From sequence record MG833025.1: a stretch of 38,553 nt of DNA; one strand, written 5' to 3'. The notes beneath the pieces are model-generated. The model made no database searches and had not been told where the DNA came from. It saw only the letters and a program-made list of their open reading frames with translations. Both the position numbers and the translations under genes were made by a program. This document shows positions 1 through 6,496 of this stretch, piece after piece. This DNA comes from Escherichia phage T7. Position 1 is the stretch's first letter. Every line of letters begins with the position of its first letter.

Positions 1-160
1 TCTCACAGTGTACGGACCTAAAGTTCCCCCATAGGGGGTACCTAAAGCCCAGCCAATCACCTAAAGTCAACCTTCGGTTGACCTTGAGGGTTCCCTAAGG
101 GTTGGGGATGACCCTTGGGTTTGTCTTTGGGTGTTACCTTGAGTGTCTCTCTGTGTCCCT
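1..160. repeat. Left direct terminal repeat, identical to 38394-38553
   Basis: The first 160 nt recur exactly at the right end; T7 has a 160-bp terminal redundancy. Confidence 0.95.
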
Positions 161-174
161 ATCTGTTACAGTCT

Positions 175-345
175 CCTAAAGTATCCTCCTAAAGTCACCT
201 CCTAACGTCCATCCTAAAGCCAACACCTAAAGCCTACACCTAAAGACCCATCAAGTCAACGCCTATCTTAAAGTTTAAACATAAAGACCAGACCTAAAGA
301 CCAGACCTAAAGACACTACATAAAGACCAGACCTAAAGACGCCTT
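175..345. repeat. Array of short CCTAAAG-family repeats next to the left terminal repeat
   Basis: Repeated cctaaag/acctaaag units, including the tandem agaccagacctaaag copies, are read directly; T7 has such repeats at its ends. Confidence 0.7.
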
Positions 346-387
346 GTTGTTAGCCATAAAGTGATAACCTTTAATCATTGTCTTTAT

Positions 388-410
388 TAATACAACTCAC
401 TATAAGGAGA
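388..410 (+). promoter_or_regulatory. T7 RNA polymerase promoter phiOL (left replication origin promoter)
   Basis: taatacaactcactataaggaga is a near-consensus 23-mer with +1 near 405. Confidence 0.85.
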
Positions 411-462
411 GACAACTTAAAGAGACTTAAAAGATTAATTTAAAATTTATCAAAAAGAGTAT

Positions 463-498
463 TGACTTAAAGTCTAACCTATAGGATACTTACAGCCA
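463..498 (+). promoter_or_regulatory. Host sigma70 early promoter A1
   Basis: -35 ttgact at 463-468 and -10 gatact at 485-490, at the known T7 A1 position. Confidence 0.85.
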
Positions 499-588
499 TC
501 GAGAGGGACACGGCGAATAGCCATCCCAATCGACACCGGGGTCAACCGGATAAGTAGACAGCCTGATAAGTCGCACGAAAAACAGGTA

Positions 589-626
589 TTGACAACATGA
601 AGTAACATGCAGTAAGATACAAATCG
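589..626 (+). promoter_or_regulatory. Host sigma70 early promoter A2
   Basis: -35 ttgaca at 589-594 and -10 taagat at 613-618. Confidence 0.85.
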
Positions 627-713
627 CTAGGTAACACTAGCAGCGTCAACCGGGCGCACAGTGCCTTCTAGGTGACTTAAGCGCACCACGGCACATAAGG
701 TGAAACAAAACGG

Positions 714-750
714 TTGACAACATGAAGTAAACACGGTACGATGTACCACA
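714..750 (+). promoter_or_regulatory. Host sigma70 early promoter A3
   Basis: -35 ttgaca at 714-719 and -10 tacgat at 737-742. Confidence 0.85.
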
Positions 751-924
751 TGAAACGACAGTGAGTCACCACACTGAAAGGTGATGCGGTCTAACGAAAC
801 CTGACCTAAGACGCTCTTTAACAATCTGGTAAATAGCTCTTGAGTGCATGACTAGCGGATAACTCAAGGGTATCGCAAGGTGCCCTTTATGATATTCACT
901 AATAACTGCACGAGGTAACACAAG

Positions 925-1278
925 ATGGCTATGTCTAACATGACTTACAACAACGTTTTCGACCACGCTTACGAAATGCTGAAAGAAAACATCCGTTATG
1001 ATGACATCCGTGACACTGATGACCTGCACGATGCTATTCACATGGCTGCCGATAATGCAGTTCCGCACTACTACGCTGACATCTTTAGCGTAATGGCAAG
1101 TGAGGGCATTGACCTTGAGTTCGAAGACTCTGGTCTGATGCCTGACACCAAGGACGTAATCCGCATCCTGCAAGCGCGTATCTATGAGCAATTAACGATT
1201 GACCTCTGGGAAGACGCAGAAGACTTGCTCAATGAATACTTGGAGGAAGTCGAGGAGTACGAGGAGGATGAAGAGTAA
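925..1278 (+). CDS. 0.3: Ocr, DNA-mimic inhibitor of type I restriction-modification
   Basis: 117-aa acidic protein [22 protein letters not shown]... matching T7 gp0.3, first gene after A1-A3. Confidence 0.95.
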
Positions 1279-1433
1279 TGTCTACTACCAACGTGCAATA
1301 CGGTCTGACCGCTCAAACTGTACTTTTCTATAGCGACATGGTGCGCTGTGGCTTTAACTGGTCACTCGCAATGGCACAGCTCAAAGAACTGTACGAAAAC
1401 AACAAGGCAATAGCTTTAGAATCTGCTGAGTGA
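1278..1433 (+). CDS. 0.4: Gene 0.4 small protein (51 aa)
   Basis: The ATG overlaps the 0.3 stop (taATG); [51 protein letters not shown]. It is below the ORF-track size cutoff. Confidence 0.8.
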   Translation: MSTTNVQYGLTAQTVLFYSDMVRCGFNWSLAMAQLKELYENNKAIALESAE

Positions 1434-1490
1434 TAGACTCAAGGTCGCTCCTAGCGAGTGGCCTTTTTGATTATCACTTTACTTATGAGG
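1434..1490 (+). promoter_or_regulatory. Probable RNase III processing site (R0.5-like) with the native gene 0.5 RBS
   Basis: actcaaggtcgctcctagcgagtggcc can form a hairpin like T7 RNase III sites; gaggga lies just before the ATG at 1496. Confidence 0.55.
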
Positions 1491-1495
1491 GAGTA

Positions 1496-2491
1496 ATGAG
1501 CATCGCGGCGACCCTGGAGAACGATCTGGCGCGTCTGGAAAACGAAAACGCTCGTCTCGAAAAAGACATCGCGAACCTGGAACGTGACCTGGCGAAACTG
1601 GAGCGTGAAGAAGCGTACTTCGGAGGTTCAGGTGGTAAGAACACTGGTGAAATCTCTGAGAAAGTCAAGCTGGGCACTAAGGCACTGGCTGGTCAATGGC
1701 TGGCTTACGGTGTTACTCGCAGTGTGACTAAGAGTTCAGTCATGACGCTGGCTTACGGGTCCAAAGAGTTCGGCTTCCGTCAACAAGTGCTGGAAGATAC
1801 CATTCAGCCAGCTATTGATTCCGGCAAGGGTCTGATGTTCACTCAGCCGAATCAGGCTGCTGGATACATGGCTAAGCTGATTTGGGAATCTGTGAGCGTG
1901 ACGGTGGTAGCTGCGGTTGAAGCAATGAACTGGCTTAAGTCTGCTGCTAAGCTGCTGGCTGCTGAGGTCAAAGATAAGAAGACTGGAGAGATTCTTCGCA
2001 AGCGTTGCGCTGTGCATTGGGTAACTCCTGATGGTTTCCCTGTGTGGCAGGAATACAAGAAGCCTATTCAGACGCGCTTGAACCTGATGTTCCTCGGTCA
2101 GTTCCGCTTACAGCCTACCATTAACACCAACAAAGATAGCGAGATTGATGCACACAAACAGGAGTCTGGTATCGCTCCTAACTTTGTACACAGCCAAGAC
2201 GGTAGCCACCTTCGTAAGACTGTAGTGTGGGCACACGAGAAGTACGGAATCGAATCTTTTGCACTGATTCACGACTCCTTCGGTACGATTCCGGCTGACG
2301 CTGCGAACCTGTTCAAAGCAGTGCGCGAAACTATGGTTGACACATATGAGTCTTGTGATGTACTGGCTGATTTCTACGACCAGTTCGCTGACCAGTTGCA
2401 CGAGTCTCAATTGGACAAAATGCCAGCACTTCCGGCTAAAGGTAACTTGAACCTCCGTGACATCTTAGAGTCGGACTTCGCGTTCGCGTAA
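1496..2491 (+). CDS. 1: Split T7 RNA polymerase, C-terminal fragment: Met, SYNZIP18-like coiled coil, GGSGG, Lys, polymerase residues 601-883 with apparent R632S
   Basis: Translation SIAATLENDLARLENENARLEKDIANLERDLAKLEREEAYF-GGSGG-KNTGEISEKV... runs to the polymerase C-terminus ...LRDILESDFAFA. It contains motif C (IHDSF, H811/D812) and the specificity-loop region. Confidence 0.93.
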   Translation: MSIAATLENDLARLENENARLEKDIANLERDLAKLEREEAYFGGSGGKNTGEISEKVKLGTKALAGQWLAYGVTRSVTKSSVMTLAYGSKEFGFRQQVLEDTIQPAIDSGKGLMFTQPNQAAGYMAKLIWESVSVTVVAAVEAMNWLKSAAKLLAAEVKDKKTGEILRKRCAVHWVTPDGFPVWQEYKKPIQTRLNLMFLGQFRLQPTINTNKDSEIDAHKQESGIAPNFVHSQDGSHLRKTVVWAHEKYGIESFALIHDSFGTIPADAANLFKAVRETMVDTYESCDVLADFYDQFADQLHESQLDKMPALPAKGNLNLRDILESDFAFA

Positions 2492-2510
2492 TAAAGAGGA
2501 GAAATACTAG
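2491..2510 (+). promoter_or_regulatory. Synthetic intercistronic RBS (aaagaggagaaa plus tactag spacer) after a double stop
   Basis: taataaagaggagaaatactagATG matches a standard synthetic-biology RBS part with an assembly scar; this is not native T7 sequence. Confidence 0.8.
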
Positions 2511-4463
2511 ATGAACACGATTAACATCGCTAAGAACGACTTCTCTGACATCGAACTGGCTGCTATCCCGTTCAACACTCTGGCTGACCATTACGGTGAG
2601 CGTTTAGCTCGCGAACAGTTGGCCCTTGAGCATGAGTCTTACGAGATGGGTGAAGCACGCTTCCGCAAGATGTTTGAGCGTCAACTTAAAGCTGGTGAGG
2701 TTGCGGATAACGCTGCCGCCAAGCCTCTCATCACTACCCTACTCCCTAAGATGATTGCACGCATCAACGACTGGTTTGAGGAAGTGAAAGCTAAGCGCGG
2801 CAAGCGCCCGACAGCCTTCCAGTTCCTGCAAGAAATCAAGCCGGAAGCCGTAGCGTACATCACCATTAAGACCACTCTGGCTTGCCTAACCAGTGCTGAC
2901 AATACAACCGTTCAGGCTGTAGCAAGCGCAATCGGTCGGGCCATTGAGGACGAGGCTCGCTTCGGTCGTATCCGTGACCTTGAAGCTAAGCACTTCAAGA
3001 AAAACGTTGAGGAACAACTCAACAAGCGCGTAGGGCACGTCTACAAGAAAGCATTTATGCAAGTTGTCGAGGCTGACATGCTCTCTAAGGGTCTACTCGG
3101 TGGCGAGGCGTGGTCTTCGTGGCATAAGGAAGACTCTATTCATGTAGGAGTACGCTGCATCGAGATGCTCATTGAGTCAACCGGAATGGTTAGCTTACAC
3201 CGCCAAAATGCTGGCGTAGTAGGTCAAGACTCTGAGACTATCGAACTCGCACCTGAATACGCTGAGGCTATCGCAACCCGTGCAGGTGCGCTGGCTGGCA
3301 TCTCTCCGATGTTCCAACCTTGCGTAGTTCCTCCTAAGCCGTGGACTGGCATTACTGGTGGTGGCTATTGGGCTAACGGTCGTCGTCCTCTGGCGCTGGT
3401 GCGTACTCACAGTAAGAAAGCACTGATGCGCTACGAAGACGTTTACATGCCTGAGGTGTACAAAGCGATTAACATTGCGCAAAACACCGCATGGAAAATC
3501 AACAAGAAAGTCCTAGCGGTCGCCAACGTAATCACCAAGTGGAAGCATTGTCCGGTCGAGGACATCCCTGCGATTGAGCGTGAAGAACTCCCGATGAAAC
3601 CGGAAGACATCGACATGAATCCTGAGGCTCTCACCGCGTGGAAACGTGCTGCCGCTGCTGTGTACCGCAAGGACAAGGCTCGCAAGTCTCGCCGTATCAG
3701 CCTTGAGTTCATGCTTGAGCAAGCCAATAAGTTTGCTAACCATAAGGCCATCTGGTTCCCTTACAACATGGACTGGCGCGGTCGTGTTTACGCTGTGTCA
3801 ATGTTCAACCCGCAAGGTAACGATATGACCAAAGGACTGCTTACGCTGGCGAAAGGTAAACCAATCGGTAAGGAAGGTTACTACTGGCTGAAAATCCACG
3901 GTGCAAACTGTGCGGGTGTCGACAAGGTTCCGTTCCCTGAGCGCATCAAGTTCATTGAGGAAAACCACGAGAACATCATGGCTTGCGCTAAGTCTCCACT
4001 GGAGAACACTTGGTGGGCTGAGCAAGATTCTCCGTTCTGCTTCCTTGCGTTCTGCTTTGAGTACGCTGGGGTACAGCACCACGGCCTGAGCTATAACTGC
4101 TCCCTTCCGCTGGCGTTTGACGGGTCTTGCTCTGGCATCCAGCACTTCTCCGCGATGCTCCGAGATGAGGTAGGTGGTCGCGCGGTTAACTTGCTTCCTA
4201 GTGAAACCGTTCAGGACATCTACGGGATTGTTGCTAAGAAAGTCAACGAGATTCTACAAGCAGACGCAATCAATGGGACCGATAACGAAGTAGTTACCGT
4301 GACCGATGAGAACGGAGGTTCAGGTGGTGGATCCAACGAAAAAGAAGAACTGAAATCCAAAAAAGCGGAACTGCGCAACCGTATCGAACAGCTGAAACAG
4401 AAACGTGAACAACTGAAGCAGAAAATCGCGAACCTGCGTAAAGAAATCGAAGCTTACAAATAA
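2511..4463 (+). CDS. 1: Split T7 RNA polymerase, N-terminal fragment: residues 1-601, GGSGGGS, SYNZIP17-like coiled coil
   Basis: MNTINIAKNDFSDIELAAIPFNTLADHYGERLAREQ... runs to ...NEVVTVTDEN, then GGSGGGS and NEKEELKSKKAELRNRIEQLKQKREQLKQKIANLRKEIEAYK. It contains motif A (D537). Confidence 0.93.
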   Translation: MNTINIAKNDFSDIELAAIPFNTLADHYGERLAREQLALEHESYEMGEARFRKMFERQLKAGEVADNAAAKPLITTLLPKMIARINDWFEEVKAKRGKRPTAFQFLQEIKPEAVAYITIKTTLACLTSADNTTVQAVASAIGRAIEDEARFGRIRDLEAKHFKKNVEEQLNKRVGHVYKKAFMQVVEADMLSKGLLGGEAWSSWHKEDSIHVGVRCIEMLIESTGMVSLHRQNAGVVGQDSETIELAPEYAEAIATRAGALAGISPMFQPCVVPPKPWTGITGGGYWANGRRPLALVRTHSKKALMRYEDVYMPEVYKAINIAQNTAWKINKKVLAVANVITKWKHCPVEDIPAIEREELPMKPEDIDMNPEALTAWKRAAAAVYRKDKARKSRRISLEFMLEQANKFANHKAIWFPYNMDWRGRVYAVSMFNPQGNDMTKGLLTLAKGKPIGKEGYYWLKIHGANCAGVDKVPFPERIKFIEENHENIMACAKSPLENTWWAEQDSPFCFLAFCFEYAGVQHHGLSYNCSLPLAFDGSCSGIQHFSAMLRDEVGGRAVNLLPSETVQDIYGIVAKKVNEILQADAINGTDNEVVTVTDENGGSGGGSNEKEELKSKKAELRNRIEQLKQKREQLKQKIANLRKEIEAYK

Positions 4464-4520
4464 GAGGGACAAACTCAAGGTCATTCGCAAGAGTGGCCTT
4501 TATGATTGACCTTCTTCCGG
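4464..4520 (+). promoter_or_regulatory. RNase III processing site R1.1 region
   Basis: gagggacaaactcaaggtcattcgcaagagtggcctttatgattgacc has a hairpin-capable actcaagg...gagtggcc motif like other T7 RNase III sites. Confidence 0.55.
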
Positions 4521-4521
4521 T

Positions 4522-4544
4522 TAATACGACTCACTATAGGAGAA
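4522..4544 (+). promoter_or_regulatory. T7 promoter phi1.1B
   Basis: taatacgactcactataggagaa, +1 near 4539. Confidence 0.9.
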
Positions 4545-4622
4545 CCTTAAGGTTTAACTTTAAGACCCTTAAGTGTTAATTAGAGATTTAAATTAAAGAA
4601 TTACTAAGAGAGGACTTTAAGT
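4545..4622. other. AT-rich region of the primary origin of replication
   Basis: AT-rich tract ttaaggtttaactttaag...agatttaaattaaagaattac just downstream of phi1.1B, where the T7 primary origin lies. Confidence 0.6.
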
Positions 4623-4751
4623 ATGCGTAACTTCGAAAAGATGACCAAACGTTCTAACCGTAATGCTCGTGACTTCGAGGCAACCAAAGGTCGCAAGTTG
4701 AATAAGACTAAGCGTGACCGCTCTCACAAGCGTAGCTGGGAGGGTCAGTAA
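4623..4751 (+). CDS. 1.1: Gene 1.1 small basic protein (42 aa)
   Basis: MRNFEKMTKRSNRNARDFEATKGRKLNKTKRDRSHKRSWEGQ with RBS gagagga upstream. Confidence 0.8.
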   Translation: MRNFEKMTKRSNRNARDFEATKGRKLNKTKRDRSHKRSWEGQ

Positions 4752-4752
4752 G

Positions 4753-5010
4753 ATGGGACGTTTATATAGTGGTAATCTGGCAGCATTCAAGGCAGCAACA
4801 AACAAGCTGTTCCAGTTAGACTTAGCGGTCATTTATGATGACTGGTATGATGCCTATACAAGAAAAGATTGCATACGGTTACGTATTGAGGACAGGAGTG
4901 GAAACCTGATTGATACTAGCACCTTCTACCACCACGACGAGGACGTTCTGTTCAATATGTGTACTGATTGGTTGAACCATATGTATGACCAGTTGAAGGA
5001 CTGGAAGTAA
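4753..5010 (+). CDS. 1.2: Gene 1.2, inhibitor of host dGTPase
   Basis: MGRLYSGNLAAFKAATNKLFQLDLAVIYDDWYDAY... 85 aa. Confidence 0.85.
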   Translation: MGRLYSGNLAAFKAATNKLFQLDLAVIYDDWYDAYTRKDCIRLRIEDRSGNLIDTSTFYHHDEDVLFNMCTDWLNHMYDQLKDWK

Positions 5011-5030
5011 TACGACTCAGTATAGGGACA
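5008..5030 (+). promoter_or_regulatory. T7 promoter phi1.3
   Basis: taatacgactcagtatagggaca, +1 near 5025. Confidence 0.9.
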
Positions 5031-5090
5031 ATGCTTAAGGTCGCTCTCTAGGAGTGGCCTTAGTCATTTAACCAATAGGAGATAAACATT

Positions 5091-6170
5091 ATGATGAACA
5101 TTAAGACTAACCCGTTTAAAGCCGTGTCTTTCGTAGAGTCTGCCATTAAGAAGGCTCTGGATAACGCTGGGTATCTTATCGCTGAAATCAAGTACGATGG
5201 TGTACGCGGGAACATCTGCGTAGACAATACTGCTAACAGTTACTGGCTCTCTCGTGTATCTAAAACGATTCCGGCACTGGAGCACTTAAACGGGTTTGAT
5301 GTTCGCTGGAAGCGTCTACTGAACGATGACCGTTGCTTCTACAAAGATGGCTTTATGCTTGATGGGGAACTCATGGTCAAGGGCGTAGACTTTAACACAG
5401 GGTCCGGCCTACTGCGTACCAAATGGACTGACACGAAGAACCAAGAGTTCCATGAAGAGTTATTCGTTGAACCAATCCGTAAGAAAGATAAAGTTCCCTT
5501 TAAGCTGCACACTGGACACCTTCACATAAAACTGTACGCTATCCTCCCGCTGCACATCGTGGAGTCTGGAGAAGACTGTGATGTCATGACGTTGCTCATG
5601 CAGGAACACGTTAAGAACATGCTGCCTCTGCTACAGGAATACTTCCCTGAAATCGAATGGCAAGCGGCTGAATCTTACGAGGTCTACGATATGGTAGAAC
5701 TACAGCAACTGTACGAGCAGAAGCGAGCAGAAGGCCATGAGGGTCTCATTGTGAAAGACCCGATGTGTATCTATAAGCGCGGTAAGAAATCTGGCTGGTG
5801 GAAAATGAAACCTGAGAACGAAGCTGACGGTATCATTCAGGGTCTGGTATGGGGTACAAAAGGTCTGGCTAATGAAGGTAAAGTGATTGGTTTTGAGGTG
5901 CTTCTTGAGAGTGGTCGTTTAGTTAACGCCACGAATATCTCTCGCGCCTTAATGGATGAGTTCACTGAGACAGTAAAAGAGGCCACCCTAAGTCAATGGG
6001 GATTCTTTAGCCCATACGGTATTGGCGACAACGATGCTTGTACTATTAACCCTTACGATGGCTGGGCGTGTCAAATTAGCTACATGGAGGAAACACCTGA
6101 TGGCTCTTTGCGGCACCCATCGTTCGTAATGTTCCGTGGCACCGAGGACAACCCTCAAGAGAAAATGTAA
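5091..6170 (+). CDS. 1.3: ATP-dependent DNA ligase
   Basis: 359 aa with the KYDGVRG adenylation motif (lysine nucleotidyltransferase motif I). Confidence 0.95.
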   Translation: MMNIKTNPFKAVSFVESAIKKALDNAGYLIAEIKYDGVRGNICVDNTANSYWLSRVSKTIPALEHLNGFDVRWKRLLNDDRCFYKDGFMLDGELMVKGVDFNTGSGLLRTKWTDTKNQEFHEELFVEPIRKKDKVPFKLHTGHLHIKLYAILPLHIVESGEDCDVMTLLMQEHVKNMLPLLQEYFPEIEWQAAESYEVYDMVELQQLYEQKRAEGHEGLIVKDPMCIYKRGKKSGWWKMKPENEADGIIQGLVWGTKGLANEGKVIGFEVLLESGRLVNATNISRALMDEFTETVKEATLSQWGFFSPYGIGDNDACTINPYDGWACQISYMEETPDGSLRHPSFVMFRGTEDNPQEKM

Positions 6171-6175
6171 TCACA

Positions 6176-6210
6176 CTGGCTCACCTTCGGGTGGGCCTTT
6201 CTGCGTTTAT
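6176..6210 (+). terminator. Early intrinsic terminator TE for host RNA polymerase
   Basis: GC-rich hairpin ggctcacc-ttcg-ggtgggcc followed by tttctgcgttta. Confidence 0.8.
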
Positions 6211-6223
6211 AAGGAGACACTTT

Positions 6224-6379
6224 ATGTTTAAGAAGGTTGGTAAATTCCTTGCGGCTTTGGCAGCTATCCTGACGCTTGCGTATATTCTTGCGGTATACCC
6301 TCAAGTAGCACTAGTAGTAGTTGGCGCTTGTTACTTAGCGGCAGTGTGTGCTTGCGTGTGGAGTATAGTTAACTGGTAA
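6224..6379 (+). CDS. 1.4: Gene 1.4 small hydrophobic protein (51 aa)
   Basis: MFKKVGKFLAALAAILTLAYILAV... with RBS aaggag 8 nt upstream; the ORF-track entry 6191-6379 is an upstream extension. Confidence 0.7.
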   Translation: MFKKVGKFLAALAAILTLAYILAVYPQVALVVVGACYLAAVCACVWSIVNW

Positions 6380-6399
6380 TACGACTCACTAAAGGAGGT
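6377..6399 (+). promoter_or_regulatory. T7 promoter phi1.5
   Basis: taatacgactcactaaaggaggt. Confidence 0.9.
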
Positions 6400-6406
6400 A
6401 CACACC

Positions 6407-6496
6407 ATGATGTACTTAATGCCATTACTCATCGTCATTGTAGGATGCCTTGCGCTCCACTGTAGCGATGATGATATGCCAGATGGTCACGCTTAA
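6407..6496 (+). CDS. 1.5: Gene 1.5 (29 aa)
   Basis: ATG after aggaggt; MMYLMPLLIVIVGCLALHCSDDDMPDGHA. Confidence 0.6.
   Translation: MMYLMPLLIVIVGCLALHCSDDDMPDGHA

Follow-up and report, generated by a model that had tools for sequence, protein, structure and literature searches.

Reversed two-cistron replacement of the RNA polymerase gene in an engineered phage T7 genome

Positions 1496-4463 of the window, by which we mean the whole 38,553-nucleotide stretch analysed (MG833025.1), almost certainly hold an artificial two-cistron construct in place of T7 gene 1 which is, by design, that of phage JB 13-78, with the order of the cistrons reversed as a guard against reversion. The arrangement and its purpose are already known, in print, and the region offers nothing new on natural phage biology. 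Its value lies in being a worked example of 'reversion-proofing' attenuation by permuting the pieces of a gene, an idea aimed at live-vaccine design.

Composition of the cassette and its surroundings

Comparison with NC_001604 revealed the whole phage T7 genome in the window, with T7 bases 1499-5847, comprising genes 0.5, 0.6A/B, 0.7 and 1 together with the part of the phi1.1A promoter upstream of its +1, swapped for the two-cistron cassette. The left arm (window 1-1498) equals NC_001604 1-1498 with A1467T as the sole difference, and the right arm (window 4464-38553) equals T7 5848-39937 with 0 mismatches. At the right junction (4464..4544), window position 4464 corresponds to T7 5848, the +1 of phi1.1A, of which -17 to -1 are deleted; the R1.1 RNase III hairpin follows, and then an intact phi1.1B promoter (4522-4544), recognized by annotation, a T7-promoter scan and identity to T7. 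The same scan found no phi1.1A match in the window. All features described here lie on the + strand.

The first cistron (1496..2491), the 'sigma fragment' of 331 aa, was identified by alignment to T7 gp1 and by the Pfam RNA_pol profile, of which positions 147-376 fall here. It begins with the native gene 0.5 ATG as initiator Met (1496-1498), followed by SynZIP18 (1499-1621; residues 2-42, a perfect match to Syn18 as printed in PMC8477956), a GGSGG linker (1622-1636), a Lys (1637-1639), T7 RNA polymerase (RNAP) residues 601-883 (1640-2488) and a TAA stop (2489-2491). Its residues 49-331 align to RNAP 601-883 without change except R632S, which results from C->A at window position 1733; at the DNA level, window 1638-2491 and T7 4969-5822 show 2 differences, the other being a silent change at 2287. 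An exact-protein look-up of cistron 1 returned no entry among public assemblies.

A 19-nt intercistronic spacer, TAAAGAGGAGAAATACTAG (2492..2510), supplies a second TAA stop, the RBS BBa_B0034 (AAAGAGGAGAAA, 2493-2504), whose sequence was verified, and a TACTAG scar. The second cistron (2511..4463), the 'alpha-beta' or 'core' fragment of 650 aa, was identified by alignment, by Pfam (RPOL_N and RNA_pol positions 1-145) and by PDB T7 RNAP residues 1-604. It comprises T7 RNAP 1-601 (2511-4313), a GGSGGGS linker (4314-4334), a zipper (4335-4460) and a TAA stop (4461-4463). We take the sequence of this zipper to be SynZIP17 (SZ17). Its position is the one in which PMC4299498 specifies SZ17, on the N-terminal fragment. 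Residues 1-601 of this cistron equal RNAP 1-601 exactly, with a single silent change at 3923 separating window 2511-4313 from T7 3171-4973, and N601 is encoded twice, once in each fragment.

Taken together, the fragments differ from T7 gene 1 at 3 positions in 2657 nt, a near-identity that puts a chance match out of the question. That same closeness makes it practically inconceivable that the gene was split or permuted naturally in a T7-like phage: this explanation would cover the bare fact of two ORFs and nothing more, whereas SynZIP peptides, Gly-Ser linkers and a BioBrick RBS with its scar are attached to the fragments, and the remaining genome is base for base the T7 reference. When the zipper-containing junctions were compared with the phage collection, only the parts from T7 gene 1 and its flanks matched, with no hit for the SZ17 segment; the arrangement includes synthetic parts, and its zipper segments occur in no phage record compared.

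Upstream of the cassette lie the E. coli early promoters A1, A2 and A3 (462..750; +1 at 498, 626 and 750), as indicated by T7 identity, the NC_001604 annotation and a sigma-70 scan (sites at 462-490, 589-618 and 714-742). By standard T7 biology, E. coli RNA polymerase would start at A1-A3 and read left to right across both cistrons. A separate internal promoter for cistron 2 was considered and rejected, as promoter scans gave neither a T7-promoter match nor a good sigma-70 match within 1496-4463; these scans and the loss of phi1.1A are consistent with a single transcript. The hairpin of RNase III site R0.5 (1428..1479; fold -25 kcal/mol, z = -3.2) is kept from T7, and R0.5 and R1.1 flank both cistrons, an arrangement that by standard T7 biology would yield one early mRNA of ~3 kb. 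The RNase III sites of T7 were reportedly described by Dunn and Studier in 1983. The annotated T7 records examined do not list RNase III features, and since an Rfam scan of positions 1-7000 (E <= 1) gave no matches, our RNase III assignments rest on folding and the T7 RNase III map.

The first-pass annotation had claimed that the C-terminal fragment (601-883, at 1496-2491) is encoded before the N-terminal one (1-601, at 2511-4463) and is transcribed first, that the upstream cistron uses the ATG and Shine-Dalgarno sequence (SD) native to gene 0.5, and that the N-terminal fragment is on a synthetic RBS. Alignment confirmed the order, and the C-terminal fragment is indeed promoter-proximal on the left-to-right early transcript. 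At the sequence level, the T7 annotation (gene 0.5 at 1496-1639) and the identity of the backbone support the claim on the start, ATG 1496 and the preceding 'gagggagta' being the native gene 0.5 start region, and the synthetic RBS proved to be B0034.

Relation to published phages and fragments

Phage JB 13-78 (MG833025; Garry, Ellington, Molineux & Bull 2018, Virus Evol 4:vey017) is, like the window, a T7 that lacks genes 0.5-0.7 and 1 and in which the deletion extends into phi1.1A. As in the window, its RNAP is divided into two fragments at the beta-sigma breakpoint and equipped with leucine zippers, and sigma is placed 5' of alpha-beta, with a 19-base spacer containing an extra stop. The reference bases or codons given by Garry 2018 at 1486 (T), 1893 (V133), 1929 (N145) and 4297 (T596) match the window exactly, and the published coordinates 17498, 22666, 33991 and 36465 fit the window only at +38, so that the window must differ by 38 bases, somewhere between 4298 and 17535, from either the published table or the deposited reference. 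The apparent identity with JB 13-78 rests on the published description.

The cassette was built from the parts of Segall-Shapiro et al. 2014 (Mol Syst Biol 10:742, PMC4299498), namely the 'core' 1:601-SZ17 and 'sigma' SZ18-601:883 fragments of the T7* RNAP, whose zippers form an antiparallel pair. It shares with that design the break at 601, the same zipper positions, with SZ18 on the C-fragment, the flexible linkers and the R632S change that defines 'T7*'. In that study, the fragments were plasmid-borne, were expressed from inducible or constitutive promoters and acted as a transcriptional resource allocator, whereas the cassette resides in a phage genome, in reverse order and on one early transcript, and provides the phage's only RNAP. 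Wild-type T7 gene 1 (883 aa, T7 3171-5822) has the same coding sequence bar 3 bases and likewise lies in the early region transcribed by the host RNAP. By contrast with this single ORF, which has its own RBS and lies between the R1 and R1.1 sites, the cassette consists of two permuted ORFs with a foreign RBS, zippers and linkers, in a genome without genes 0.5-0.7 and phi1.1A. Going by the T7 RNase III map, the R0.7 and R1 sites are presumably missing from the cassette genome as well.

Purpose of the reversed order

The reversed order is a deliberate genetic safety device, serving evolutionary stability and not stoichiometry. Garry et al. 2018 (PMC6009699) give as the explicit reason that it blocks restoration of one reading frame, and state that the reversal also stops viable recombinants with the wild type. 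According to their methods, the native order was first made on the pDJG plasmid, where it complemented, and was then purposely re-encoded in reverse for the recombination plasmid. This history renders it highly improbable that the order arose unplanned during cloning or assembly, although convenience did shape the junctions, as the BioBrick scar and the reused gene 0.5 ATG show. The suggestion in the first-pass annotation that the order merely followed from how the cassette was built is contradicted by the same history, whereas reliance on the gene 0.5 RBS does seem to be such a consequence.

The protection afforded by the reversal was examined in silico. The cistrons share just one long exact repeat, a 16-nt direct repeat in the linker coding sequence, CGGAGGTTCAGGTGGT, with copies at 1621..1636, in third-codon-position phase, and at 4313..4328, in the same codon phase. 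In the native order, a deletion between the copies loses 295 nt and produces an 890-aa single-chain RNAP that departs from the wild type only in R632S and in GGSGGKN inserted after N601. In the actual order, the equivalent deletion loses 2692 nt, and what remains is a zipper-zipper protein of 91 aa. Because 601-883 precedes 1-601, a colinear gene 1 cannot be rebuilt by any single deletion or crossover, and the attenuating fragmentation therefore cannot simply revert. Another route to reversion, a circular-permutant fusion of 981 aa obtained by removing the stop and spacer in silico, was rejected because it would extend the C-terminus of the RNAP (…FAFA), and activity requires that end to be free.

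Translation of the two fragments

The sigma fragment (SynZIP18-linker-RNAP 601-883, R632S) would, judging from the sequence, be translated from the native gene 0.5 start, now its own (1487..1498; GAGG at 1487-1490 with an aligned spacing of 4, and ATG at 1496-1498), and the alpha-beta fragment (RNAP 1-601-linker-SynZIP17) would be translated from B0034 after the double stop and the 19-nt spacer. The antiparallel SynZIP17/18 coiled coil would bring both residue-601 ends together, and the re-formed polymerase would then drive the remainder of infection; activity of the reassembled fragments has been shown experimentally (PMC4299498, Segall-Shapiro 2014; PMC6009699, Garry 2018). The ORF listing extends the first ORF in frame to a GTG at 1430, which is unlikely to be the true start, as it lacks an SD and overlaps the stop of gene 0.4, and its position is within the 5' arm of R0.5, upstream of the cleavage point.

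In a home-made thermodynamic model, the sigma RBS, a 4-bp GAGG at usable spacing, scored -5.0 kcal/mol, and B0034, a 6-bp GAGGAG, scored -7.6 kcal/mol. T1486G, an adaptive change published for the phage and labelled 'intergenic' without explanation (Garry 2018, PMC6009699), turns the sigma SD into AGGAGG with unchanged spacing, at -9.2 kcal/mol in the same model. The model is crude, and even the gene 10 RBS ranked only moderate in it; its RBS ratios, 77-fold and, after T1486G, 12-fold, are distrusted as absolute values, and only the change in SD register and length is robust. A published 1180-1534 deletion, when mapped onto the window, places codon 14 of cistron 1 in frame directly behind codon 85 of gene 0.3.

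These observations bear on the proposal that the order and RBS pairing were chosen to tune the fragment ratio. The two initiation regions are clearly unequal, and adaptive changes altered the sigma SD and in one case joined sigma to the start of gene 0.3, as might be cited in its favor. Nevertheless, we consider such tuning very unlikely: Garry 2018 state another explicit reason, the blocking of single-frame restoration, and are silent on any design by RBS choice or fragment ratio; a pre-existing deletion simply has its left edge at the gene 0.5 start; and immediate strengthening of the sigma SD by selection is not what a tuned ratio would lead one to expect. The first-pass annotation, which had raised deliberate stoichiometry tuning, was thus right that the order is deliberate and wrong about stoichiometry as the purpose.

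The gene 0.5 RBS appears instead to have been taken over when the cassette was fitted to the pre-existing T7-delta-1 deletion. The unequal RBSs appear to be a by-product of fitting onto this existing end-point and probably left the sigma fragment under-translated, and unequal translation of the two fragments is plausibly an unintended side-effect. As a side-effect, stoichiometry probably did matter, given the GAGG of the sigma RBS and its conversion to AGGAGG by T1486G. We further propose, tentatively and with somewhat more doubt than confidence, that, owing to the reversed order and weak gene 0.5 SD, translation of the sigma fragment fell far below that of the alpha-beta fragment driven by B0034, that this made up a large part of the initial attenuation, and that the imbalance was corrected by T1486G and a transient gp0.3-zipper fusion. 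This runs contrary to the view of Garry 2018 that stoichiometry is not the main defect. If true, some of the published loss and recovery of fitness may be due to the fragment ratio set by the RBSs, which would refine attenuation design, a modest new point.

The private A1467T change sits in the internal loop of R0.5, and the MFE of the hairpin is unchanged with or without it. It adjoins what we take to be the R0.5 cleavage position (1468, in the Dunn & Studier numbering) and is absent from all phage records in the collection compared. This change might be an additional adjustment to the same mRNA, made at an earlier stage.

Composition and origin of the cassette

Alignment showed that window 1-1498 is identical to the T7 reference NC_001604 with the sole exception of A1467T, and that window 4464-38553 corresponds to T7 5848-39937 with 0 mismatches. 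The window, of 38,553 bases, represents an entire phage T7 genome, and its 1384-base length difference is fully accounted for by the exchange of T7 1499-5847 for the cassette at window 1499-4463. Annotated within the replaced stretch of NC_001604 are genes 0.5, 0.6A/B, 0.7 and 1, two minor E. coli promoters (B and C) and the part of phi1.1A from -17 to -1. The right junction (window 4463/4464) falls exactly at phi1.1A +1, which keeps the transcribed portion together with the R1.1 RNase III hairpin. A consensus promoter scan recovered phiOL, phi1.1B, phi1.3 and later promoters, with no match at phi1.1A; because its -17 to -1 recognition sequence is wholly absent, genes 1.1-1.3 must depend on phi1.1B, phi1.3 and host read-through.

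The first-pass annotation had placed the C-terminal polymerase piece before the N-terminal one, and the alignment confirmed this. Cistron 1 (window 1496-2491; 331 aa), the sigma fragment, comprises Met, a 41-residue coiled-coil peptide, GGSGG, Lys and T7 RNAP 601-883, in which R632S is the sole amino-acid change, alongside one silent change. Cistron 2 (window 2511-4463; 650 aa), the alpha-beta fragment, comprises an exact RNAP 1-601 with one silent change, GGSGGGS and a 42-residue coiled-coil peptide. These boundaries are consistent with Pfam and PDB comparisons. The assignment of translation signals also stood: cistron 1 begins at the annotated gene 0.5 ATG, preceded by native T7 sequence (gagggagta), while the 19-base intercistronic spacer (TAAAGAGGAGAAATACTAG) consists of a second stop codon, the synthetic BioBrick RBS B0034, whose identity was confirmed as AAAGAGGAGAAA, and TACTAG, the standard assembly scar. 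Relative to T7 gene 1, the silent changes lie at window 2287 (T7 5618 C->G, codon 816) and window 3923 (T7 4583 T->C, codon 471), the latter creating a GTCGAC (SalI) site; both were presumably inherited from a plasmid-borne polymerase gene.

The same parts were used by Segall-Shapiro et al. 2014 (PMC4299498), who split T7 RNAP at residue 601, placed the antiparallel pair SynZIP17 and SynZIP18 on the N-terminal "core" and C-terminal "sigma" fragments, respectively, and used the R632S "T7*" variant. The cistron 1 peptide is identical at every residue to the Syn18 sequence given in PMC8477956. The genome as a whole matches the design of JB 13-78 of Garry, Ellington, Molineux and Bull 2018 (PMC6009699), a two-fragment RNAP phage with zippers and the sigma fragment 5' of alpha-beta, whose parent T7-delta-1 lacks genes 0.5, 0.6A, 0.6B, 0.7 and 1 through a deletion extending into phi1.1A. 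The zipper brings the two peptides together as an active polymerase on which the phage can grow, initially with a large loss of fitness (PMC4299498, PMC6009699). The mutation table of PMC6009699 and the window coincide at 1486 (T), 1893 (codon 133 second base, Val), 1929 (codon 145, Asn) and 4297 (RNAP codon 596, Thr); the downstream entries 17498, 22666, 33991 and 36465 fit window bases and codons only at +38, so that, within window 4298-17535, either the table or its reference lacks 38 bases relative to the window. This is an engineered construct already described in print and, as such, already known.

Reason for the reversed order

The first-pass annotation described the arrangement correctly and misjudged its motive, for which it had proposed stoichiometry tuning or an accident of cloning. 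Neither is the documented reason: PMC6009699 explicitly states another, the blocking of reversion to a single polymerase reading frame, and the logic of this was tested on the sequence. On a plasmid, the authors had first built the native order, which complemented the deletion phage; with the reversed design, they state, the sole viable recombinants with wild type would be full replacements (PMC6009699). The sole long exact repeat common to both cistrons is a 16-nt sequence, CGGAGGTTCAGGTGGT, located in both linkers (window 1621-1636 and 4313-4328) and beginning at a codon third base in each copy. In the native order, deletion between the copies in silico takes out 295 nt and yields an 890-aa single-chain polymerase, predicted to be wild type but for R632S and a GGSGGKN insertion after N601, a position reported to accept added domains (Segall-Shapiro et al., PMC4299498). 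In the actual order, the same deletion costs 2692 nt, and the product is a zipper-zipper peptide of 91 aa that contains no polymerase. That cistron 1 starts at the gene 0.5 ATG does seem to follow from seating the cassette on an existing deletion end-point, judging from the junctions and the methods text.

Direct fusion of the two open reading frames was also considered as a reversion route and rejected, as it would lengthen the polymerase C-terminus. Extension of this terminus is not known to be tolerated.

Transcription and translation of the two fragments

Host RNAP would read from the early promoters A1-A3 through both cistrons, with the sigma cistron transcribed first. Sigma-70 and T7-promoter scans revealed no noteworthy promoter-like or terminator-like site inside the cassette, and the retained R0.5 (window 1428-1479) and R1.1 (from 4464) hairpins are predicted to fold as in T7. 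The RNase III sites R0.7 and R1 lie inside the replaced stretch of the T7 map; with both gone, the two cistrons should share a single processed mRNA, which is likewise what the authors assumed (PMC6009699). Owing to the absence of genes 0.5-0.7, the distance from the left end to the last polymerase codon is 1359 bases shorter than in the wild type.

In a home-made thermodynamic model, which is crude and whose absolute ratios we do not trust, the strongest pairing of the sigma upstream region with the 16S rRNA 3' end (AGGGAG) lies too near the ATG, leaving a usable register of 4-bp GAGG at an aligned spacing of 4 (-5.0 kcal/mol), and B0034 of the alpha-beta cistron, whose surroundings are less structured, offers 6-bp GAGGAG at a spacing of 7 (-7.6 kcal/mol). 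This qualitative asymmetry fits T1486G, an adaptive, fixed, "intergenic" mutation that PMC6009699 leaves unexplained, with ribosome binding not discussed. T1486G converts tatGAGG to tAGGAGG, a 6-bp core Shine-Dalgarno AGGAGG at the same near-optimal spacing, and shifts the modeled duplex energy from -8.0 to -10.7 kcal/mol unconstrained; in the usable register the shift is from -5.0 to -9.2. The transient 1180-1534 deletion (PMC6009699) fuses gene 0.3 codon 85 in frame with cistron 1 codon 14, so that translation of the sigma fragment would begin at the start of gene 0.3. We infer that, together, these two mutations suggest that sigma-fragment supply was limiting and support 1496 as the working start. 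The asymmetry may have contributed to the published attenuation and recovery, the one mildly new idea here.

In the predicted fold of the RNase III-processed 5' end (window 1469-1500), which is mostly native gene 0.5 leader, GAGG sits in a hairpin loop, and the 1496 AUG is taken up in pairing between UCA 1474-1476 and UGA 1497-1499. Such pairing may add to weak initiation at the sigma cistron.

R632S and A1467T

R632S (window 1733, cistron 1 codon 80) is a toxicity-reducing mutation from Voigt-lab plasmids. Since it is carried by the sigma fragment and is unmentioned in the phage paper (PMC6009699), R632S rather than fragmentation could be behind part of the reported attenuation. No R632S reversion appeared in the published adaptation (PMC6009699), though one base change would suffice.

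A1467T, the sole base outside the cassette unlike the T7 reference, is unmentioned in the source paper (PMC6009699) and occurs in no phage-collection record (best match 118/119). Its place is the internal loop of the R0.5 hairpin, an RNase III site, where it adjoins the cleavage position; the predicted fold energy is the same with and without it. The change removes an ATG at 1467-1469 that had opened a 9-codon mini-ORF ending TAATG on the 1496 start, and it lengthens the U-run past the GC-rich stem, so that the R0.5 hairpin now scores as terminator-like.
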